Shown: positions 770-15,114 of the stretch, in pieces | How the letters are laid out: each line of letters opens with the position of its first letter | Numbering within the stretch: the stretch's first letter is position 1 | IMG/VR virus record: IMGVR_UViG_3300011337_000444 | Location: 6,383-70,382 of that record | Reading direction: 5' to 3' (one strand) | DNA length: 64,000 nt | Source: a virus | Lineage: Duplodnaviria > Caudoviricetes | The notes under the pieces: generated by a model | Databases searched by the model: none | Told to the model about the DNA's origin: nothing | The model's input: the letters and a program-made list of their open reading frames with translations, nothing else | Translations under genes and position numbers: made by a program

Positions 770-2832
770 TTGATTACGTAAAAAAAATGCAGTCTTTAGG
801 TTTTAGTGTATTCCCACTAAACACAAAGAAGGAGCCTAACTTCAAGAAGGGAGGAGAGATAAACAGTTATTCATGGATGGACTTTAATGTAAAGACTAAT
901 CCATTTCCTATAACAGAGAATACCGAAAGTAATTTTATTTTCTTAGGTATAGGATGTGGGGATATGAGTAATAACTTAGAGGTTATTGATGTTGATAGCA
1001 AGTATGAGTTGGATCAAGACCTATGGGGAGAATTTAAAGTATTGTTGCAGGATAATTTAGAGGTTTTTGATAAATTGTGCATCGTGCAGACTGTTTCCAA
1101 AGGATACCACGTTATGTACTACTGTGATACTATACAGGGAAACCAAAAGTTAGCGCAAAGGTATCTTTCAAGAGATGAAAAAAACGCTCACTACGTTAAA
1201 CTTACACAAGAAGATAAGATTGATAAGGAAAAAGCTAAAAACCAAGCACAAACAAAGAAACTTACCTTAATTGAAACTAGAGGGCAGGGAGGATATGTTG
1301 CTACGTATCCAAGTGAAGGTTACACAATTATCCAAGGCTCAATGGAAACAATACCTACCATAACTTCCGAAGAGAGAGATATAATCATGTGCTGCGCAAA
1401 AGCAATGGATTTAATTGAAGAAGAAAAGGTAGAAGAAAAGAAAGTTGCTTTGCCGGTATGGGAAGAAGGAAAAAAACCTTGGGAAGCGTATAATGAACAA
1501 ATGAGTGCAGAGGATATGGCTAGTTTATTTGTTTCTAATGGTTACACAATTCCTTTACGAGTAAAAGATAGGATATACATCAAACGCCCAGGAGGTAAAT
1601 CACAGTCAGGTAATATTCGTATTCACGATAAAATTTTTGTAGGTCACTCTAGTAATATACCTTTTGAACCACAAAAAGGATATAGTGCATCAGGTGTATT
1701 TACCATGTTAGAATGTAACGGAGATTTTTCACTTGCAGGAAGAAAGTTACTTGAAATGGGTTTTGGAGATAAACCAAAGAAGAAGCTATCAAATGATTTT
1801 GAGATTTTATCGGAGAAGTTTGAACCGGATAATTACGTAGCTAAAGTAAACTCCAATAGAGATACTATTGAAAAATTCCTACGTGGCGAATTTGGTATGG
1901 GATTACCTACTGGTTATGAATTACTAGATGAATATTATAGATTTAAGTTAGGTAAGTTTGATGTATTCTTAGGACATGAAAATATTGGTAAATCAACTGT
2001 TTTGTGGAATATGATGGTAGTAGCGAATGTGCTACACAATTGGAGAGGGATTATTTATTCAACAGAAAATGATCCATGGGTAATACAAAAACAAATGATG
2101 GAGTTTTTAGTAGGTAAGCAAATGAGTTTGTTTACAGAAAATGAAAAGGAACTCGCTTATAAATGGTTTGATGAAAATTTTGTGATTATTGATAATGAAA
2201 AACTTTTATCGTATAATCAAATTACGCAGGTAGCAGAATCATTTTTATTAAAAAAAGAATACCACGTACTAATGATAGACCCATACAATACCTTATCCTA
2301 CAATTGGGAAGGATTGGATAGAAGAATGGGTACACATGAATATCATCACCACGTGGCTACACAATTCAAACAATGGACAAAAAACATGAATTGCAGTATA
2401 TGGTTATCTATGCACCCTATTACAGAAGCAATGAGAGTGGTAGAAACAACTGGTGAATTTAAAGGTATGCGTAAACCTCCTATTTCTTCACACGCAGAGG
2501 GTGGTGGTAAATGGGTAGCTAAAGCAGATAACTTTATTGTATTACATAGATACACTAAACACGCAACTATGAGGAACATTACATTTTTTGATGTCCAAAA
2601 GGTTAAAGAAACATTTACAGGCGGTAAACCAATGATTGAAGGTAGTGCTTTTAAAATGACTTTAACGAATTACGGTGGCTTTGTTGGGTTTTTTGATGAA
2701 AAAAATTCTTGCCCTTTGCAAGGAATATTCAGAAAAAGATTTATCTTTGGAGAGCAAACAGAAATTCCCAATGATGAACAACCAAGAAGTAGATTATCCA
2801 AATGGTCAGACGACATAAAAGCCCCATTCTAA
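766..2832 (+). CDS. Bifunctional primase-polymerase (Prim-Pol) fused to a DnaB/RecA-type helicase
   Basis: N-terminal LEVIDVD, TVSKGYHVMY and IETRGQGGYV Prim-Pol motifs; C-terminal Walker A GHENIGKST, Walker B LMIDPYN, then LSMHP and ADNFIVLHR. Confidence 0.88.
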   Translation: MIDYVKKMQSLGFSVFPLNTKKEPNFKKGGEINSYSWMDFNVKTNPFPITENTESNFIFLGIGCGDMSNNLEVIDVDSKYELDQDLWGEFKVLLQDNLEVFDKLCIVQTVSKGYHVMYYCDTIQGNQKLAQRYLSRDEKNAHYVKLTQEDKIDKEKAKNQAQTKKLTLIETRGQGGYVATYPSEGYTIIQGSMETIPTITSEERDIIMCCAKAMDLIEEEKVEEKKVALPVWEEGKKPWEAYNEQMSAEDMASLFVSNGYTIPLRVKDRIYIKRPGGKSQSGNIRIHDKIFVGHSSNIPFEPQKGYSASGVFTMLECNGDFSLAGRKLLEMGFGDKPKKKLSNDFEILSEKFEPDNYVAKVNSNRDTIEKFLRGEFGMGLPTGYELLDEYYRFKLGKFDVFLGHENIGKSTVLWNMMVVANVLHNWRGIIYSTENDPWVIQKQMMEFLVGKQMSLFTENEKELAYKWFDENFVIIDNEKLLSYNQITQVAESFLLKKEYHVLMIDPYNTLSYNWEGLDRRMGTHEYHHHVATQFKQWTKNMNCSIWLSMHPITEAMRVVETTGEFKGMRKPPISSHAEGGGKWVAKADNFIVLHRYTKHATMRNITFFDVQKVKETFTGGKPMIEGSAFKMTLTNYGGFVGFFDEKNSCPLQGIFRKRFIFGEQTEIPNDEQPRSRLSKWSDDIKAPF

Positions 2833-2874
2833 TACGTACACAATTAATCTTAATATAAACTAAATCTAAATGTT

Positions 2875-3543
2875 ATGGCTAGAGGAAATCAGCAAACAGA
2901 CAATTACGCTAACTTATATGTGAAGTTAGTAGGCTTGAAAAAAGGAAGCAAGGAGTGTTTCTTTGAGTTTAAGAAAAAAGATGGCGACAAGTATGTTGTT
3001 ATCGAAAATAATAACGCCTTTGATGGTGGTGTTGAAAAAATCGGTTACAAAGAAATCGAAGTAGAGGGTAAGAAAAAACCTGTACTAGAGATTATCTTAC
3101 GTGATGATTTTGCACAGGAAAGATACTTATTAAACTTAGGTATGACTAACGTATCAAGACAATTAATTTCATGTTTAACTACTGCTGATAAGATTGAATC
3201 TTTATCGTTTTGGACAAAGATGGGTGATGCAGGTTTCCCAGTATTTGTAACTAAAGCAAATGGTAGTAATGATAAACTACAATGGGGTTTAGATATGAAG
3301 GCATTAACCGAGAAGTATGTAACTGAACATAAAATCGCAGGAGATATTATTCGTGATTATACTGAATTGGATAAATACTTATTAGGAACTGTGTTACCTA
3401 CGGTTATCGAAAAAGTAGTTGGTTTACCTAAAGCAAGTATAATGACCGCAAAGGATCCTATTGAGCAAGTAACTAAACCTGATATTTACAAAGCATCAGA
3501 GGAATCTTCTTACGAGGAAGAGGATGGTGATTTACCATTTTAA
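2875..3543 (+). CDS. Putative single-stranded DNA-binding protein
   Basis: Follows the helicase; beta-rich N-terminus and acidic tail ending EEEDGDLPF. Confidence 0.65.
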   Translation: MARGNQQTDNYANLYVKLVGLKKGSKECFFEFKKKDGDKYVVIENNNAFDGGVEKIGYKEIEVEGKKKPVLEIILRDDFAQERYLLNLGMTNVSRQLISCLTTADKIESLSFWTKMGDAGFPVFVTKANGSNDKLQWGLDMKALTEKYVTEHKIAGDIIRDYTELDKYLLGTVLPTVIEKVVGLPKASIMTAKDPIEQVTKPDIYKASEESSYEEEDGDLPF

Positions 3544-3558
3544 TTAAATTTTTAATAG

Positions 3559-3649
3559 TAGCGTACCTTCGGGATGTCAGGCTTCACATGGTAAAATCTT
3601 GTGTACAGAGAAAGAAGCCCTTAGCAAACTTAATACCTACGCTATTTTT
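3559..3649 (+). ncRNA. Candidate structured RNA / multi-branched terminator after the SSB-like gene
   Basis: Outer stem TAGCGTA/TACGCTA, cUUCGg hairpin, inner stem GGCTTC/GAAGCC, then a T-tract. Confidence 0.4.
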
Positions 3650-3669
3650 ATTCATACACAATTAGCAAA

Positions 3670-4071
3670 ATGACAAAAGAAAAGGCACTAGAAATTTATA
3701 TGGGTAGCTTCAAGGATGCTAAACAAACCCATTTTGAGTTCATTTGGGGAGTAATACACTCAACGAATAAAGAACAAGATTACAGAATCTTTGTTGATGA
3801 TTTTAATTCGATATTAGAAAGGAATTTCAAGTATGCGGATGTAAAAGCTCAAAGACAATTCAAATCACTTAGAAAAGCAGGATATACAGCCGAAGATGAT
3901 TTAAAAGTATTTAAAGCATTAAGGGATGATAGTTTCCATATGGAATCAGATTATAAATACTGTACTCCCGAATACATTTCTAGGATGAATATCTATGAGA
4001 AATACCGTAATCAATACAGAGAAGAAAAGAAAATAGATTTAAAAAAAGTAATAGGTAATCCATTTAAGTAA
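3670..4071 (+). CDS. Hypothetical protein resembling the conserved C-terminal domain of phage replication proteins
   Basis: GYTAEDDLKV...KYCTPEYISRMNIYEKYRNQ resembles the Phg_2220_C-type pattern. Confidence 0.45.
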   Translation: MTKEKALEIYMGSFKDAKQTHFEFIWGVIHSTNKEQDYRIFVDDFNSILERNFKYADVKAQRQFKSLRKAGYTAEDDLKVFKALRDDSFHMESDYKYCTPEYISRMNIYEKYRNQYREEKKIDLKKVIGNPFK

Positions 4072-4072
4072 T

Positions 4073-5293
4073 ATGAAAAAATATAACGTACTATCTGCCT
4101 TCAACGGAATGAGTTGTGGATATATTGCCTTATCTGAATTAGGATTTGATATTAATAAATATTACATTTCCGAAGTTGATAAACACGCAAATAAAATAGC
4201 GGAATTGATTTATCCTGAAAGTATCTTTTTAGGCGATGTTAGAAAAATTGATGTAGCACAATTAGAAACGATTGATATTGTATTAGCAGGTTTTCCTTGT
4301 ACCGATTTATCCTTTGCAGGTAAAAAATCAGGATTGATTTGTGAGGGATTGGATGAATATATGGAACTAAGGGAGGAATACCTACAAACTAATGATGAAA
4401 ACCTTTATTTTTATAACGGTAAATTCCAACAGTCAATTTTGTTTTATGAGTTTCTACGTATTTGGAATGATGTAAAGAAAATTAATCCTAACGCATTGTT
4501 TTTAGTGGAAAATGTAAAAATGAAACAAACAGAGGAATTAAAGATTAGTAAGTTATTAGGTATGCACCCAATTAGTATAAACGCTAAATTAGTAAGCGCA
4601 CAATCACGAGATAGATTATTTTGGACTAATATTGCTAATAAGCCTTTAGGTATGTTTGGAGATATTTATATTGATATTCCACAACCTAAAGATAGAGGGA
4701 TTTATTTAAAGGATATTTTAGAGGACCAGGTGGATGAAAAGTATTTTTTGAGTGAGAAAATTGTACAAGGATTTTTAAAGCACAAAGAAAGGCATAAGGA
4801 AAAAGGTAACGGTTTTGCTTTTGAGCCGAAAGATGTTATGCAGAAATCTAACACGTTAAAAACAATGGAGGGTAAAAGAAACACAGATACCTACATCAAA
4901 ATTGACAAAAAAGGTAATATTAAATCAAATCAGGATAAAGCAAGTTGTTTTACAGCAGGTGGAAATAGTGGAGGAAATCACTCTGATATGGATTTAATCA
5001 TAACCCACAACCTACAACCACGTTCGGGTAAAGGTAAAGGCGGTAAAGGGCATTTAAGTAAAACCGATCAAAAAAGTTATTGTTTGGATACTGGAAATAG
5101 TCAAGGTTTGGAGATAATTGGTAAATCCAACATCCGTAGATTAACCCCACGCGAAGCAGGAAGATTACAATCAGTACCAGAACCTATTTTGGATTTAATG
5201 TTAAGTAGCGGTGTAAGTGATACGCAACTCTATCGTTTGTTCGGGAATGGGTGGTGTATAGAGGTTATTAAACACATTTTAAATTTTATATAA
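4073..5293 (+). CDS. C5 cytosine DNA methyltransferase
   Basis: Motif I VLSAFNGMSCG, catalytic AGFPC, ENV, QSRDRLFW, RRLTPREAGRLQ and FGNGW. Confidence 0.93.
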   Translation: MKKYNVLSAFNGMSCGYIALSELGFDINKYYISEVDKHANKIAELIYPESIFLGDVRKIDVAQLETIDIVLAGFPCTDLSFAGKKSGLICEGLDEYMELREEYLQTNDENLYFYNGKFQQSILFYEFLRIWNDVKKINPNALFLVENVKMKQTEELKISKLLGMHPISINAKLVSAQSRDRLFWTNIANKPLGMFGDIYIDIPQPKDRGIYLKDILEDQVDEKYFLSEKIVQGFLKHKERHKEKGNGFAFEPKDVMQKSNTLKTMEGKRNTDTYIKIDKKGNIKSNQDKASCFTAGGNSGGNHSDMDLIITHNLQPRSGKGKGGKGHLSKTDQKSYCLDTGNSQGLEIIGKSNIRRLTPREAGRLQSVPEPILDLMLSSGVSDTQLYRLFGNGWCIEVIKHILNFI

Positions 5294-5876: not shown

Positions 5877-6488
5877 ATGAGAACTAAAATAAACATGGTA
5901 GGCAAAACCTATGGAAAATTACTAATACTTGAAGAGGTTAAAGAAAGAGATAGCTACGGATATATTTTATACAAATGTAAATGTTCCTGCGGTAAAGAAA
6001 AAATAATTCGAGGTCACAATATAAGGTCAGGAAACTCTTTATCGTGTAGTTGTTCGAGGATTCAACCAAACTTAAAGCACAATATGTCATATACTGCAGA
6101 ACATAACGCATGGAGAAGCATGAAGAAAAGGTGTAAGAATAAAAACGATCCAAGATATGAAGATTACGGAGGAAGAGGAATAAAGGTTTGTGATAGATGG
6201 ATTAATTCTTTCGAAAACTTCTTCGAAGATATGGGTTATAAACCAAGTAAAAGCCATTCCATTGAAAGAATTAATAACGATGGCGATTACGAACCTTCAA
6301 ATTGTATTTGGGCTGATGTTAAAACACAAGCTCGTAATAAGAGAACTTCTATGAAAATTTTATACGAAAACAAAATTATAGATATTTTTTTATTTAGTGA
6401 AATAATGAACTTATCTGTGTCGGGAGCTAAGAAACGTATTTTTAGAAATTACAAACTCACTGATGGAATATATTTGAAATATAAATAA
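5877..6488 (+). CDS. Free-standing HNH-type homing endonuclease
   Basis: YKCKCSCG, YGGRGIKVCDRW and SIERINNDGDYEPSNCIWA are typical of phage HNH endonucleases. Confidence 0.85.
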   Translation: MRTKINMVGKTYGKLLILEEVKERDSYGYILYKCKCSCGKEKIIRGHNIRSGNSLSCSCSRIQPNLKHNMSYTAEHNAWRSMKKRCKNKNDPRYEDYGGRGIKVCDRWINSFENFFEDMGYKPSKSHSIERINNDGDYEPSNCIWADVKTQARNKRTSMKILYENKIIDIFLFSEIMNLSVSGAKKRIFRNYKLTDGIYLKYK

Positions 6489-11821: not shown

Positions 11822-12135
11822 AAGGAGAATTTGCTTTATTTGTAGAGATATGGAAAGAACGCCCTCACTATTCAGAAATATCAGGAGAACCATTAGGTAG
11901 CTTTAACGTAGCTTTCTTTTCACATATACTAAGCAAAGGCGCATATCCCGAAATGAGAATGGATAAACGTAACATTGTCCTTAAAACAATTAAGGAACAC
12001 ATGGAATGGGAAACCGGTAATAGGGAGAAGCTAATGAATAACCCTAAATGGAAAAAAGTATTTGATTTACAAGAAGAATTAAAGCTTTACGCCAATACCA
12101 ACAATAGGGGTACGATTAAAAAGATTAATTCCTAA
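11818..12135 (+). CDS. NinG/HNH-like small nuclease-fold protein
   Basis: FSHILSKGAYPEMRMDKRNI...EH pattern; lacks the usual Zn cysteines. Confidence 0.5.
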   Translation: MKGEFALFVEIWKERPHYSEISGEPLGSFNVAFFSHILSKGAYPEMRMDKRNIVLKTIKEHMEWETGNREKLMNNPKWKKVFDLQEELKLYANTNNRGTIKKINS

Positions 12136-12594
12136 ATCTACCTTATAGGATTTGAATAAGTACGATGCGTATGGAGTGATGTTTCTGTACCCAAATTGTG
12201 TACCGATGTACAATCCATTTTTCTCTATACGCTCGGTTGTTTTTAATGTATCTATTCTAATTATTGATGGTTGCTTAAAAGTATATTGAATATCAGATTT
12301 AAGCAATACACCATCTATATCTTGCACAATTTGTAAGCTTAACAAACTATCACTATAATCCGTTGTAAAACGATTAAACTCGTAAATTAATGTATCGTGT
12401 ATAGTATCACGAATAACCGTAACAGAAGAAGGAAGAATATCTTTTTTAACTACTGTATGGGTAACGTAAACAGTATCAGATTTACCAGGTAAATACTCAA
12501 CCTCTGTTTCTATAATTCTATCTTCACCTTTTAAACAACATTTTAAAAGTATTATACTAAGTAAGATAATGATTATGTTTTTTATATTTTCCAT
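12079..12594 (-). CDS. Putative spanin-like lysis protein
   Basis: N-terminal hydrophobic segment ending LLKCC, DTV/DTI/DTL repeats, amphipathic C-terminal beta strands; last gene of the lysis cassette. Confidence 0.5.
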   Translation of the reverse strand: MENIKNIIIILLSIILLKCCLKGEDRIIETEVEYLPGKSDTVYVTHTVVKKDILPSSVTVIRDTIHDTLIYEFNRFTTDYSDSLLSLQIVQDIDGVLLKSDIQYTFKQPSIIRIDTLKTTERIEKNGLYIGTQFGYRNITPYASYLFKSYKVDLGINLFNRTPIVGIGVKL

Positions 12595-12611: not shown

Positions 12612-13028
12612 TTATTTATTACATGGTTTACAAATATCAACTCTACAAGTGCATACTAAACCACCATTTGGTAATGATGTTAAATATACTTCTTCATTTA
12701 CTGGATTACCATTTTTAGCGTAACCAACATATTTTCCTGACCATTTGCCATTCTGCTCTATAATTGGGAATACTTTATTAATGAAATATTCAACATCTTT
12801 TTCTTTATATAAAATTTGCCACGTTTTACCAATTAATTCATCTACGCTATAACCAAACATTTCCGCGTGTGCTTCATTAAGATAAATGTATTCTCCTTTT
12901 TCGTTCAAAATTGCAATTCCTTCATGGCTTGTATTGATTGCCATTTTCAGCAATTCGTTTTGCTTAAAAATATTCGATATTTTTTCACTTAGGATTTTAA
13001 TATCTTCAAATTTTTTAAACGTTTCCAT
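12612..13028 (-). CDS. Stand-alone PAS domain protein
   Basis: EGIAILNEKGEYIYLNEAHAEMFGYSVDELIGKTW...WSGKYVGYAKNG...LTSLPNGGLVCTCRVD follows the PAS consensus over the whole domain. Confidence 0.9.
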   Translation of the reverse strand: METFKKFEDIKILSEKISNIFKQNELLKMAINTSHEGIAILNEKGEYIYLNEAHAEMFGYSVDELIGKTWQILYKEKDVEYFINKVFPIIEQNGKWSGKYVGYAKNGNPVNEEVYLTSLPNGGLVCTCRVDICKPCNK

Positions 13029-13029
13029 T

Positions 13030-13356
13030 TTAAAATTTCTTTAATATCCACGAAATTATAAAGCCTACTATTATTTCAATTGCAATTAATAAACCGATTG
13101 CCTTAGACCATTTATTTTTCTGATCATAAATCTCATCTTTAGCTTCTTTCATCTGCCTTGCGCTCCATGTATCAGTCACTTCTTTATGCCACAGTTTTAA
13201 ATCGTGCAAATCTTTTTCCGCTGTTTGTATTTTAACAATTTCACGTTGCAAATCATCAAATTTTTTATCTAAATTTAATTTTAAATTCTCTACGCTAGTT
13301 CTATTTCGCTCCAGCTCATTAAGTATTAATTTCGTAAAGTCGTTTATCTCGTTCAT
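13030..13356 (-). CDS. Coiled-coil protein with one C-terminal transmembrane helix (holin/antiholin-like)
   Basis: Heptad-rich N-terminus and AIGLLIAIEIIVGFIISWIL TM segment; next to the endolysin. Confidence 0.6.
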   Translation of the reverse strand: MNEINDFTKLILNELERNRTSVENLKLNLDKKFDDLQREIVKIQTAEKDLHDLKLWHKEVTDTWSARQMKEAKDEIYDQKNKWSKAIGLLIAIEIIVGFIISWILKKF

Positions 13357-13376: not shown

Positions 13377-13832
13377 TTATACAAATAAATATTTATCTAA
13401 TCTTTTTACCCAATCAGGAACAAAAAAGTTTGGACAAGTCTTACCCTTATCAAACTCGTTATGTCCATGTATGTTCTGTAAGGAAATTGTGTATTCATCT
13501 GTTAAGTGAACTAACAATGAAGCTAAAGTTTTTTCTTGTTCAGGCGTATAGTCATATTTCGCATCCCAACCACCTTCTAAACAGATACCGATACTACCTG
13601 TGTTTTTACCTTTACAATGCGCTCCTACCTTATTTAAATCTCTTCCTAAGTGTAGTGAGCCATCAAACTTAATGTAATAGTGATAACCAATCTCATTAAA
13701 CCCTCGTGCCTTATGCCATTGTTCTATATCATACACACTTGTATTCATTGTTGGTCTTGTCATTGCACAATGAATAATAATACTATTCAAAGGTCTTTTT
13801 GCTTTTGGTAGGATTAGATTAGTAATTTCCAT
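13377..13832 (-). CDS. Endolysin, N-acetylmuramoyl-L-alanine amidase (Amidase_2, T7 lysozyme-like)
   Basis: IIIHCA, IGYHYYI, GAHCKGKNTGSIGICLEGG, HGHNE and KTCP Zn-amidase motifs. Confidence 0.93.
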   Translation of the reverse strand: MEITNLILPKAKRPLNSIIIHCAMTRPTMNTSVYDIEQWHKARGFNEIGYHYYIKFDGSLHLGRDLNKVGAHCKGKNTGSIGICLEGGWDAKYDYTPEQEKTLASLLVHLTDEYTISLQNIHGHNEFDKGKTCPNFFVPDWVKRLDKYLFV

Positions 13833-14320
13833 GATTTGATTTTATATTCTCTTTTTAGTTTAACAATTGTTTCATCGTATAAATCCTTTAGCCATTGTGG
13901 TTCCGGTTGTCTTTCTCCTTTTATGTAATCTCTCAATATGAAAAATTGAGCACCAACCCTTACAGCAAAGTATTGAGTAAATGCCCATTTTATACCTGCT
14001 CCTGATTTCAGCTCCAAATATAAGAAAATAATATCATTTTTTTTACCACCGAAACCACAACGTGAAGGGTAGTCATGAAAAAAACTTGAAATGTTACCTT
14101 GGTAGTTATCCTTTACAAATGTTTTAGCATCGAAGCCATGTGTTTCCCAAAACCTACTTTTAAAAATTAGGTTTAGACAATTGTAATAATTAATCCCTAA
14201 CTTGAACTCCATAACCTGTTTTAAAAAGTTTACATAAACAGATTTTTCTGTAAAGAATCTGTAAGGCTTACCAAACAATTGGTCTTTATAAGGTGCGGTA
14301 TATGGCTCAAAGTTTTCCAT
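13814..14320 (-). CDS. DUF1353-like protein
   Basis: GFDA...FFHDY...NDIIF...YFAVR pattern. Confidence 0.5.
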   Translation of the reverse strand: MENFEPYTAPYKDQLFGKPYRFFTEKSVYVNFLKQVMEFKLGINYYNCLNLIFKSRFWETHGFDAKTFVKDNYQGNISSFFHDYPSRCGFGGKKNDIIFLYLELKSGAGIKWAFTQYFAVRVGAQFFILRDYIKGERQPEPQWLKDLYDETIVKLKREYKIKSWKLLI

Positions 14321-14535
14321 TATTCAGTTGGTTTAGAATTTGTTTGACTATCTCCAAAGTAATAATTAATAATCGTTGCAACTAAAGTACCTATTAAAAA
14401 ACCTAGTACTGTATCAACCACTCTATGATTGTCTTTAGGAATAGTTATAAATGTTACACAAAATAAATAAACTACTGAAACAAAGCTGTAAAATATAGCT
14501 AATTTGTTTCTCATATTGTTAAAATTAATTTTCAT
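14320..14535 (-). CDS. Putative holin (two TM helices)
   Basis: Two hydrophobic segments, ending INYYFGDS; heads the lysis cassette. Confidence 0.65.
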   Translation of the reverse strand: MKINFNNMRNKLAIFYSFVSVVYLFCVTFITIPKDNHRVVDTVLGFLIGTLVATIINYYFGDSQTNSKPTE

Positions 14536-14658
14536 TTTTTTATAATATAAGGATAATGTGGATGCTTTACTTTATCTATCTTTTTATCTGCTTTGCATTT
14601 TACAGCAAATAGGTAAAAGAATATTCCAAATAATACAATAAATGCAACCCTTTCAAGA

Positions 14659-15114
14659 TTAGTTTTCTGCATGGTTTACTGTAATTTCTAATTGTGGATA
14701 AGCGTCAAATATAGCTTGGTGTTCGGGTAAAATAGTATTCGCGTAGAAATATAATTTGTCGCCCTCGTCATGCGTTACCATATTTGTAGTTTTTCGGTGC
14801 ATTGCTAAACCCATAGCAATCTCAGGCTCATTCATTGCACCCCATACAACACCGCTTTTATTTTGTATGATTTGAACAGCTTTATCTTCATGCCACCTTG
14901 TTGGCAATTCCTCCACTATCTCCACGTAATCAGTAATATACTGCTCTGTTACCTCATCTTTAACAACATAACCAAAACCTCTCCATACCCATTCATCTAC
15001 ATATCTTTGAGTTACTGTGTCTTGTGGATTATTTACCCTATGTTGTGTAATCCATTCATTATTTAAATGTTGCATTTGCGTTACGTAAACGCTTATTTCT
15101 ATTTTATAAACCAT
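14659..15114 (-). CDS. Hypothetical tail-associated protein
   Basis: 151 aa, downstream of the fibre genes. Confidence 0.6.
   Translation of the reverse strand: MVYKIEISVYVTQMQHLNNEWITQHRVNNPQDTVTQRYVDEWVWRGFGYVVKDEVTEQYITDYVEIVEELPTRWHEDKAVQIIQNKSGVVWGAMNEPEIAMGLAMHRKTTNMVTHDEGDKLYFYANTILPEHQAIFDAYPQLEITVNHAEN

Follow-up and report, generated by a model that had tools for sequence, protein, structure and literature searches.

Current models time phage lysis by the accumulation of holin and a few dedicated antiholins, as in T4 lysis inhibition. XhlA of Bacillus subtilis PBSX (xhlA-xhlB-xlyA, PF10779) is a membrane protein, and lysis requires it along with the holin XhlB and the endolysin XlyA (PMC5589764, PMC10630273). 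T4 RIII (with RI and the holin T) and P1 LydB (with the holin LydA; PMC9025707) are non-lytic accessory modulators of holin triggering on the cytoplasmic side. VqmA-Phage of vibriophage VP882 is a PAS-HTH protein whose PAS domain is copied from a host receptor and that couples host killing to a small-molecule signal inside the cell (PMC8284805). Here, we describe a pair of genes in a 64,000-nucleotide (nt) stretch of DNA of an uncultured freshwater tailed phage (Caudoviricetes; IMG/VR record IMGVR_UViG_3300011337_000444, positions 6,383 to 70,382), in the following called the window. The first encodes a partner protein of 108 amino acids (aa) with a coiled coil and a C-terminal transmembrane (TM) helix (13030..13356, minus strand; from sequence and AlphaFold2 (AF2)), the second a stand-alone PAS protein of 138 aa without signal peptide or output domain (12612..13028, minus strand; from Pfam, AF2 and Foldseek). 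Both lie in the lysis cassette. In the literature, no PAS protein was found described in a holin-endolysin cassette, the nearest published case being VqmA-Phage. To our knowledge, no characterised phage has a general-purpose sensor domain in its lysis cassette.

We tentatively propose that the PAS protein and its 108-aa partner form a membrane-tethered, two-gene sensor module of a Bacteroidota phage lysis cassette that tunes holin triggering, a reading that we put somewhat short of even. The topology of the partner, its contact with PAS, the sensing and the effect on lysis are what we infer. With XhlA the partner shares its small size, the N-terminal coiled coil, the single C-terminal TM helix and the place beside a holin and an amidase: its gene follows Amidase_2 directly and lies two genes from that of a 2-TM protein. 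It differs from XhlA in having no significant profile match, a Gram-negative Bacteroidota host and, in its long form, some 35 extra residues, and XhlA has no attached sensor protein. Because the Pfam model fails to match, we say that the partner may work like XhlA and not that it is XhlA. T4 RIII and P1 LydB are comparable by role, the one proposed here for PAS, and have no known sequence relation; they carry neither PAS nor another recognised sensor domain, and their target is the holin itself, whereas here it would be a tail-anchored rod protein. Antiholins (T4 RI/RIII, P1 LydB and lambda S107) are defined by what they do, binding the holin and delaying its triggering, and have no sequence family in common. 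VqmA-Phage has a DNA-binding output and acts transcriptionally on the lysogeny-to-lysis decision, whereas the PAS protein of the window has no output, a membrane partner and a place in a late cassette. The short LOV proteins PpSB1-LOV and SBW25-LOV (PDB 7yx0, 6gg9), which are among the top structural matches, likewise consist of a PAS core and flanking helix for dimerisation or signalling, with no effector. In contrast to these, the window protein lacks NCRFLQ and the photoactive Cys, which is replaced by Trp, and its flanking helix is N-terminal only.

The two genes are obligatorily adjacent and translationally coupled. As the original prediction had it, the PAS gene is tied to the adjacent TM coiled-coil gene, and this held in every intact locus of the family: a partner homologue adjoins it in 12 of the 13 IMG/VR loci, the 13th being a gene fragment at a contig end, as well as in contigs from ENA, JGI and Logan (L002-L010) and in a contig (L189) of a metagenome-assembled genome (MAG). 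The partner stop codon lies 1 nt before the PAS start codon in the window (TAA-A-ATG); in other loci the spacing is likewise 1 nt, or there is an overlap of 1-4 nt. Loci whose PAS proteins are more alike also have more similar partners (r = 0.87 between the pairwise identities, 66 pairs). The PAS reading frame is a real gene under purifying selection, with a ratio of non-synonymous to synonymous substitution rates (dN/dS) of 0.06-0.17; the partner is likewise constrained, both genes together spanning 0.03-0.2. The order of the genes is inverted in L008, L019, L020 and L026, where the partner is of a short form of 68-92 aa that aligns to the long form at both ends, the long form carrying an extra segment of ~35 residues.

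A complete PAS domain preceded by an N-terminal helix had been predicted, with no output domain, and both points were borne out. Five Pfam models matched above their gathering scores, namely PAS_9 (1.1e-11, 45.4 bits, cut-off 27), PAS (3.5e-10, 40.3 bits, cut-off 22.6), PAS_8 (34.7 bits, cut-off 21.8), PAS_3 (30.5 bits, cut-off 25.6) and PAS_4 (29.3 bits, cut-off 23.1). The AF2 model, calculated with 26 homologues, has a mean predicted local distance difference test (pLDDT) score of 92.3. It consists of an N-terminal helix (aa 2-32; 12933..13025, minus strand), a PAS core (aa 33-130; 12639..12932, minus strand, also delimited by alignment) and a C-terminal tail, VDICKPCNK, with a distal CxxC (12615..12638, minus strand, from alignment). 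The core has a five-stranded sheet (37-41, 46-50, 95-103, 109-118 and 124-130) and helices at 52-57, 62-65, 70-73 and 76-93. Foldseek aligned the model to hundreds of solved PAS domains at 17-24% identity (E 1e-8 to 1e-6; target-normalised TM-score up to 0.85), including NifL, EcDOS, short LOV proteins and structural-genomics PAS domains. A whole-library profile search with the PAS alignment gave 131,849 matches, mostly multi-PAS kinases, and judged by these searches the core is a mainstream PAS type. No output domain was found in the protein and the chain stops 8 residues past the core, so it is not of the sensor-kinase type. PHROGs contained no family for it. The 63 homologues in the collection (40-99% identity) are stand-alone as well, all metagenomic or viral, and 129-152 aa long except for fragments and one PAS-PAS fusion. 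The latter, P0085 (242 aa, metagenomic), has a PAS domain of the family type (aa 1-130, ending in CTCRD) fused to a second PAS domain.

Invariant in the family are H54, W70, Y74, W96, K105, C126 and C128, the last two forming a CxC on the last beta-strand. The Cys-rich tail that had been noted before (CTCRVDICKPCNK) is present, but only C126 and C128 are found family-wide, in the last beta-strand; the distal CxxC is specific to a subclade (7 of 26 aligned sequences), and residues 134-138 are predicted to be disordered (pLDDT <50). The 3′ end of the PAS gene is also a mosaic junction (window 12612..12640 versus L012:5375-5399 and L013:5375-5399): proteins 92-96% identical to each other either finish with VDICKPCNK and have the 171-aa lipoprotein-like gene downstream, or finish with RIII and have genes for a 90-aa TM protein and an M15 endolysin there. 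A membership in the LOV subfamily was rejected, since the GxNCRFLQ motif is absent and the equivalent segment, GKTWQILYK, has an invariant Trp at the position of the Cys. Haem PAS domains of the FixL/EcDOS type were rejected too: F-alpha (aa 76-93, KDVEYFINKVFPIIEQNG) contains no His, and the sole invariant His, H54, is on C-alpha. The closest solved sequences (3ewk MmoS and 3lyx) do not point to a ligand for the domain.

Apparently, the core was taken from a host kinase. The closest cellular PAS domain is the first one of a Chitinophagaceae hybrid histidine kinase (PAS-PAS-HisKA-HATPase-REC; from a MAG, L190), which is 49% identical and 71% similar to the phage core over residues 30-129, including GGLVCVCR, and shares H54, W70, W96 and the CxC of the last strand. 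A multi-PAS sensor kinase from the representative library, P0091, has PAS domains that are 38-39% identical to the phage core. All cellular relatives are parts of sensor kinases of 430-1535 aa, and none of these has a gene for the partner in its vicinity. The N-terminal helix (residues 1-29) has no cellular counterpart and is specific to the phage proteins; whereas the Chitinophagaceae domain continues into PAS-HisKA-HATPase-REC, the phage protein stops after the core and has a helix of its own. On these matches, the PAS core is of cellular origin, and H54, W70, Y74, W96 and the CxC are inherited sensor-domain features.

The partner is modelled by AF2 as two helices (2-63 and 66-107; pLDDT 86.8). 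Its only hydrophobic helix comprises aa 86-105 of 108, with a conserved E, Q or N at mid-membrane, 3-4 residues after it and no signal peptide. It is thus predicted to be tail-anchored, with its rod in the cytoplasm. The family has 91 homologues and neither a Pfam or PHROG assignment nor informative source names; PAS-coupled partners are 69-128 aa long. Its nearest named neighbours in a protein language model are Atlas clusters of DUF7201, DUF2951 and XhlA at 0.91-0.92, which is a lead only. Two other identities were tried and rejected: an i-spanin of the Rz type, for lack of an N-terminal TM helix and a signal peptide, and T4 gp40, a membrane-associated chaperone of head-vertex assembly, with an hhalign probability of 0.2% and no hydrophobic helix in the translated T4 gp40.

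How such a module could operate can be pictured as follows. PAS and partner would be produced late and in coupled amounts. The single C-terminal helix of the partner, with its conserved polar residue at mid-membrane, would enter the inner membrane, while the rod of ~85 residues would stay in the cytoplasm, and the partner would cooperate with the 2-TM holin in the manner of XhlA with XhlB of PBSX. The phage-specific N-terminal helix would dock the soluble PAS protein on the rod. The PAS core, captured from a Bacteroidota sensor kinase, might sense a small ligand in the cell or, through its two conserved Cys, the redox state and, via the helix, could alter the triggering readiness of the partner/holin assembly, so that lysis would occur earlier or later. 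A complex prediction for PAS (alignment A1) and partner residues 1-86 (alignment A2) gave a score of 0.01 and no verdict, and so speaks neither for nor against binding.

The connection to lysis comes from the genes around the pair, which are exchanged while the pair stays constant. In phages that are not T4-like, it occurs in six or more cassettes of different build, whose endolysins belong to at least five families. The endolysin is an Amidase_2 in the window, L002-4, L011, L014 and L016, a GH19 with PG_binding_1 in L005/6, a Peptidase_M15_3 in L010 and, with weaker matches, in L012/13, a protein of the M15_4/VanY type in L019, L026, L021 and L102, and an Amidase_3 in L022. The holin position is filled by four unrelated families of 2-TM proteins. 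In L025, a partner that is 71% identical to the PAS-linked partner of L017 directly precedes a Peptidase_M15_4 endolysin and has no PAS gene beside it. Because this shuffling of neighbours matches the usual mosaic look of lysis cassettes, the partner is probably a cassette protein, and the lone partner of L025 suggests that PAS is an optional add-on to it. In L014, L015 and L020 the slot of the endolysin in sister cassettes holds a DUF5675 protein (L014:5637-6023, L015:5637-6023 and L020:1066-1470; Pfam 8e-28 to 2e-32). From this position, DUF5675 may be a lysis protein, for instance a hydrolase of the cell wall.

The strongest argument that PAS and partner work together is that different PAS types have been recruited to one partner family. 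In IMG/VR scans centred on the partner, Pfam confirmed PAS genes that the family profile had missed: a PAS_3 protein in L102 (1.9e-16), which adjoins a phrog_894 endolysin, a PAS_4 protein in L052 (4e-8) and a PAS_3 protein in L106 (2.9e-11). L104 has two PAS-only genes in tandem directly after the partner (2816-3702), one for a PAS_4-like protein of 154 aa and one for a PAS_3-like protein of 141 aa. In L026, a PAS_3 protein accompanies a short partner, with genes for a TM protein, an M15 endolysin and a holin-like protein downstream. In a further 25 of 80 loci, a PAS protein of 131-198 aa ends a few nt before a partner of 69-142 aa. Going by these profile matches, the partner family has neighbours from at least four distinct PAS lineages, and the PAS gene may come first or second. 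An N-terminal motif, xNIxKLxxLSxKI, is common to the other PAS lineages and to 78-aa proteins that adjoin partner homologues, and the PAS proteins of L026 and L020 are 31% identical in their N-terminal region. The PAS family of the window aligns to this motif position weakly (hhalign probability 5%).

Several findings, set out here, in the next paragraph and below with the question of sensing, weigh against a sensor module that tunes holin triggering. The XhlA model (PF10779) did not match anything in the window genome at E <= 10, and its best match among the relatives had an E value of 0.81 and 10.3 bits against a cut-off of 34.7, by which XhlA was rejected as the identity of the partner. No fused PAS-partner protein was found among the PAS homologues of 75-242 aa or the longer matches of the partner profile, which is weak evidence. 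Among cultured phages (INPHARED) there was no match for the cassette DNA, the PAS protein or the partner of the window; neither was there one for the short L026 partner or for the T4-like partner with its 147-aa neighbour, and the divergent L026 PAS protein gave two weak matches only, to records without annotation.

The basic job of the module may also be other than lysis. About 90 of 160 partner loci surveyed in two scans are T4-like, on contigs of up to 374 kb, with the partner between portal and prohead-protease genes, and only 11 of the best 80 loci with long-form partners have a PAS gene. A search with the seed set found no endolysin within ~4 kb of the partner in T4-like loci. The gene order in these is portal, a protein of ~259 aa, a 78-aa or a PAS_3 protein, partner, a 147-aa protein, prohead protease (Peptidase_S77, 2e-22), scaffold and major capsid protein; the partner lies at about 3970-4320 of the locus in, for example, L041, L044, L058, L060, L073, L081, L084 and L090. 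The place of the 78-aa protein directly upstream of the partner is taken in 20 T4-like loci by a protein of the PAS_3 type, 145-198 aa long (in the range L160-L172 and L177-L188, e.g. L163:3008-3457 and L184:3014-3466). Over its first ~38 residues, the 78-aa family agrees with these PAS_3 proteins in their N-terminal helix (hhalign 94%, E 1.4e-7, motif SeNIxKLReLtxkL). The claim that PAS is linked to lysis genes in other phages thus stands for the cassettes that are not T4-like, but a second PAS lineage sits in T4-like loci with no endolysin nearby. The lysis role is something that we infer, because most partner homologues are without PAS and lie in T4-like head-gene clusters.

A module that serves another late membrane process, for example the tethering or timing of head assembly, with the lysis genes of the window as neighbours only because the late operon ends there, is an unlikely explanation but the one that fares best among the alternatives. 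The T4-like majority speaks for it, with its conserved head-gene order and flanks free of endolysin-like genes, and so does the N-terminal motif that the 78-aa protein shares with the PAS proteins replacing it. Against it, endolysin and holin-like genes enclose or adjoin the pair in at least six cassette designs of phages that are not T4-like, and the lone L025 partner directly precedes an endolysin. T4-like genomes scatter their lysis genes. The partner and its T4-like neighbours are also unlike T4 gp40, gp67 and gp68, and a 2-TM protein directly follows the module in the T4-like loci L007, L054 and L063. If the module nevertheless belongs to head assembly of T4-like phages, it would be an undescribed membrane-linked component of morphogenesis.

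Some further observations concern the T4-like clusters. The 78-aa and 147-aa proteins were tried as T4 gp67 and gp68 and showed no similarity, and none of the three small neighbours of the T4-like partner has a Pfam or PHROG family or resembles T4 gp67, gp68 or gp40. Glutamine-synthetase-like genes (Gln-synt_N/C) lie right after the partner module in several T4-like contigs (L007:2940-4076, L038:4400-5551, L054:4736-5812 and L063:4735-5853), and accessory genes apparently tend to insert between the partner gene and the 147-aa gene. A model in which the N-terminal adaptor helix would be the constant element and the PAS core a plug-in fits the data.

It is tempting to extend the sensor module on this basis. 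Aquatic Bacteroidota phages, both podovirus-like and T4-like, might have a plug-in sensor system made of the rod, the adaptor helix and either nothing more or one of at least four PAS types of host kinases, which would tie differing intracellular signals to a late membrane event, most likely the triggering of the holin, by protein-protein signalling and without transcription. We regard this wider scheme as doubtful.

Whether PAS senses anything is a separate question. It might instead regulate or stabilise the partner as a ligand-free dimerisation scaffold or a constitutive subunit resembling an antiholin or a chaperone, which we consider rather improbable. The PAS protein has no recognised cofactor signature, neither the NCRFLQ of LOV nor a His on F-alpha, and the domain could be ligand-free because an invariant Trp occupies the pocket position of the LOV Cys. 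The invariant W70, Y74 and W96 could fill the pocket, and many PAS domains do without a cofactor. In PAS-less T4-like phages, moreover, a helical 78-aa protein with the same N-terminal motif fills the slot. The occurrence of at least four PAS lineages, plus the tandem of L104, on one partner is explained more easily by selection for different inputs than by the demand for a scaffold, and the core is still 49% identical to the input domain of a sensor kinase, including the CxC.

The original prediction had also considered a decoy, that is, a PAS protein that heterodimerises with the PAS domains of host sensor kinases and thereby blocks or hijacks two-component signalling. PAS domains commonly dimerise, and the similarity of the core to the N-terminal PAS of the Chitinophagaceae kinase and to the PAS domains of P0091 would suit such a protein. 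We judge it improbable: a decoy explains neither the obligatory, translationally coupled membrane partner nor the unrelated PAS lineages with the same partner, and a gene at the very end of the late operon would supply it only at a time when host signalling is least important. That the partner is an analogue of an inner-membrane spanin, with a periplasmic coiled coil that pairs with the downstream lipoprotein while PAS is an unrelated passenger, is very improbable despite its coiled coil with one TM helix, the lipobox-type protein encoded downstream and the u-spanin-like proteins at that slot in L005 and L018, because the C-terminal position of the TM helix, the 3-4 residues beyond it and the lack of a signal peptide make export of a charged 85-residue rod unlikely, and the PAS linkage is also seen in loci without such a lipoprotein and in T4-like loci.

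Gating of lysis by the sensor module would mean that phages of abundant aquatic Bacteroidota monitor the metabolic or redox state of the host at the last step of infection, with effects on burst size, carbon release and models of environmental viral lysis. For engineered lysis, it would offer small, exchangeable switches that connect a sensor to the membrane. Two small proteins, one cassette and its natural versions with PAS lacking or swapped make a concrete, cheap set for tests.

The window is most of a virus record of 70,382 bp that CheckV rates as complete. Its large terminase shares ~32% identity with the terminases of phages that infect Flavobacterium, Cellulophaga and Tenacibaculum, a near-identical PAS-partner contig (L189; 91% PAS identity) was binned with a Bacteroidota MAG, and metagenomes of river, drinking-water and estuary origin also contained DNA of the window; these findings make an aquatic bacterium of the Bacteroidota the probable host. 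A late operon on the minus strand, with terminase, portal, structural genes and tail fibre, terminates with the lysis cassette and converges on plus-strand genes at ~12.1 kb. Apparently, the phage is lytic. A promoter and terminator scan of 11.5-16 kb gave counts at or near shuffle expectation. Contigs from RNA libraries of 4 studies cover the cassette in part and 2 of them bridge the partner/PAS junction, which is weak evidence as DNA carry-over is possible; the gaps include most of the PAS gene and do not mean silence.

The order, co-orientation and tight packing that had been described for the cassette are correct. Its genes encode, in this order, a 46-aa protein resembling a TM protein or lipoprotein, a 71-aa 2-TM holin-like protein, a 168-aa protein, the endolysin, the partner, PAS and a 171-aa protein. 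The endolysin (13377..13832, minus strand) is an N-acetylmuramoyl-L-alanine amidase without signal peptide (Pfam Amidase_2 1.4e-18; phrog_822 3.5e-49), in line with the amidase named before. The holin candidate (14320..14535, minus strand) matches phrog_9990 (2.3e-8), a family of unknown function; its two hydrophobic helices were read from the identical protein of L011, and it is 54% identical to the C terminus of a 153-aa protein adjoining the L026 endolysin. The gene of the 168-aa protein (13814..14320, minus strand) is recognised by synteny, being conserved upstream of the endolysin gene (162 aa in L002 and L005). The label DUF1353-like that this reading frame had been given was not upheld: it has no Pfam or PHROG match, and a separate 138-aa protein in relatives reaches E values of 0.019-0.035 only.

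The last gene of the late operon (12079..12594, minus strand) codes for the 171-aa protein, which by its sequence has a lipobox-like N terminus (LLKC) and a beta-rich C terminus. It had been called spanin-like, which agrees with its position and its N terminus but not with the lack of a C-terminal TM helix; no Pfam or PHROG match was found for it. L002/L016 encode a homologue downstream of PAS; in L020, L021 and L022 it comes later in the cassette, past the endolysin gene. In L005 and L018 this slot is taken by proteins that combine a lipobox with a C-terminal TM helix, the architecture of u-spanins. The 171-aa protein is a candidate for the outer-membrane step of lysis. Its family of 171-198 aa (L020:2015-2602, L021:6315-6911 and L022:6193-6765) has no Pfam assignment, ends in an aromatic or hydrophobic residue and closes cassettes at the place expected for a spanin; it may be an undescribed outer-membrane lysis component of Bacteroidota phages. 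At the other end of the cassette, the 46-aa protein (14532..14672, minus strand) has, from its sequence, an N-terminal hydrophobic helix that ends in Cys and a conserved tail, HPHYPYI(I/V). Homologues are found at the matching position in L002, L005, L011 and L012. The gene is conserved upstream of the 162/168-aa gene or of the gene for the 138-aa DUF1353-like protein, and upstream of the holin-like gene in the window and L011. Its product may be a very small lipoprotein of the lysis cassette.

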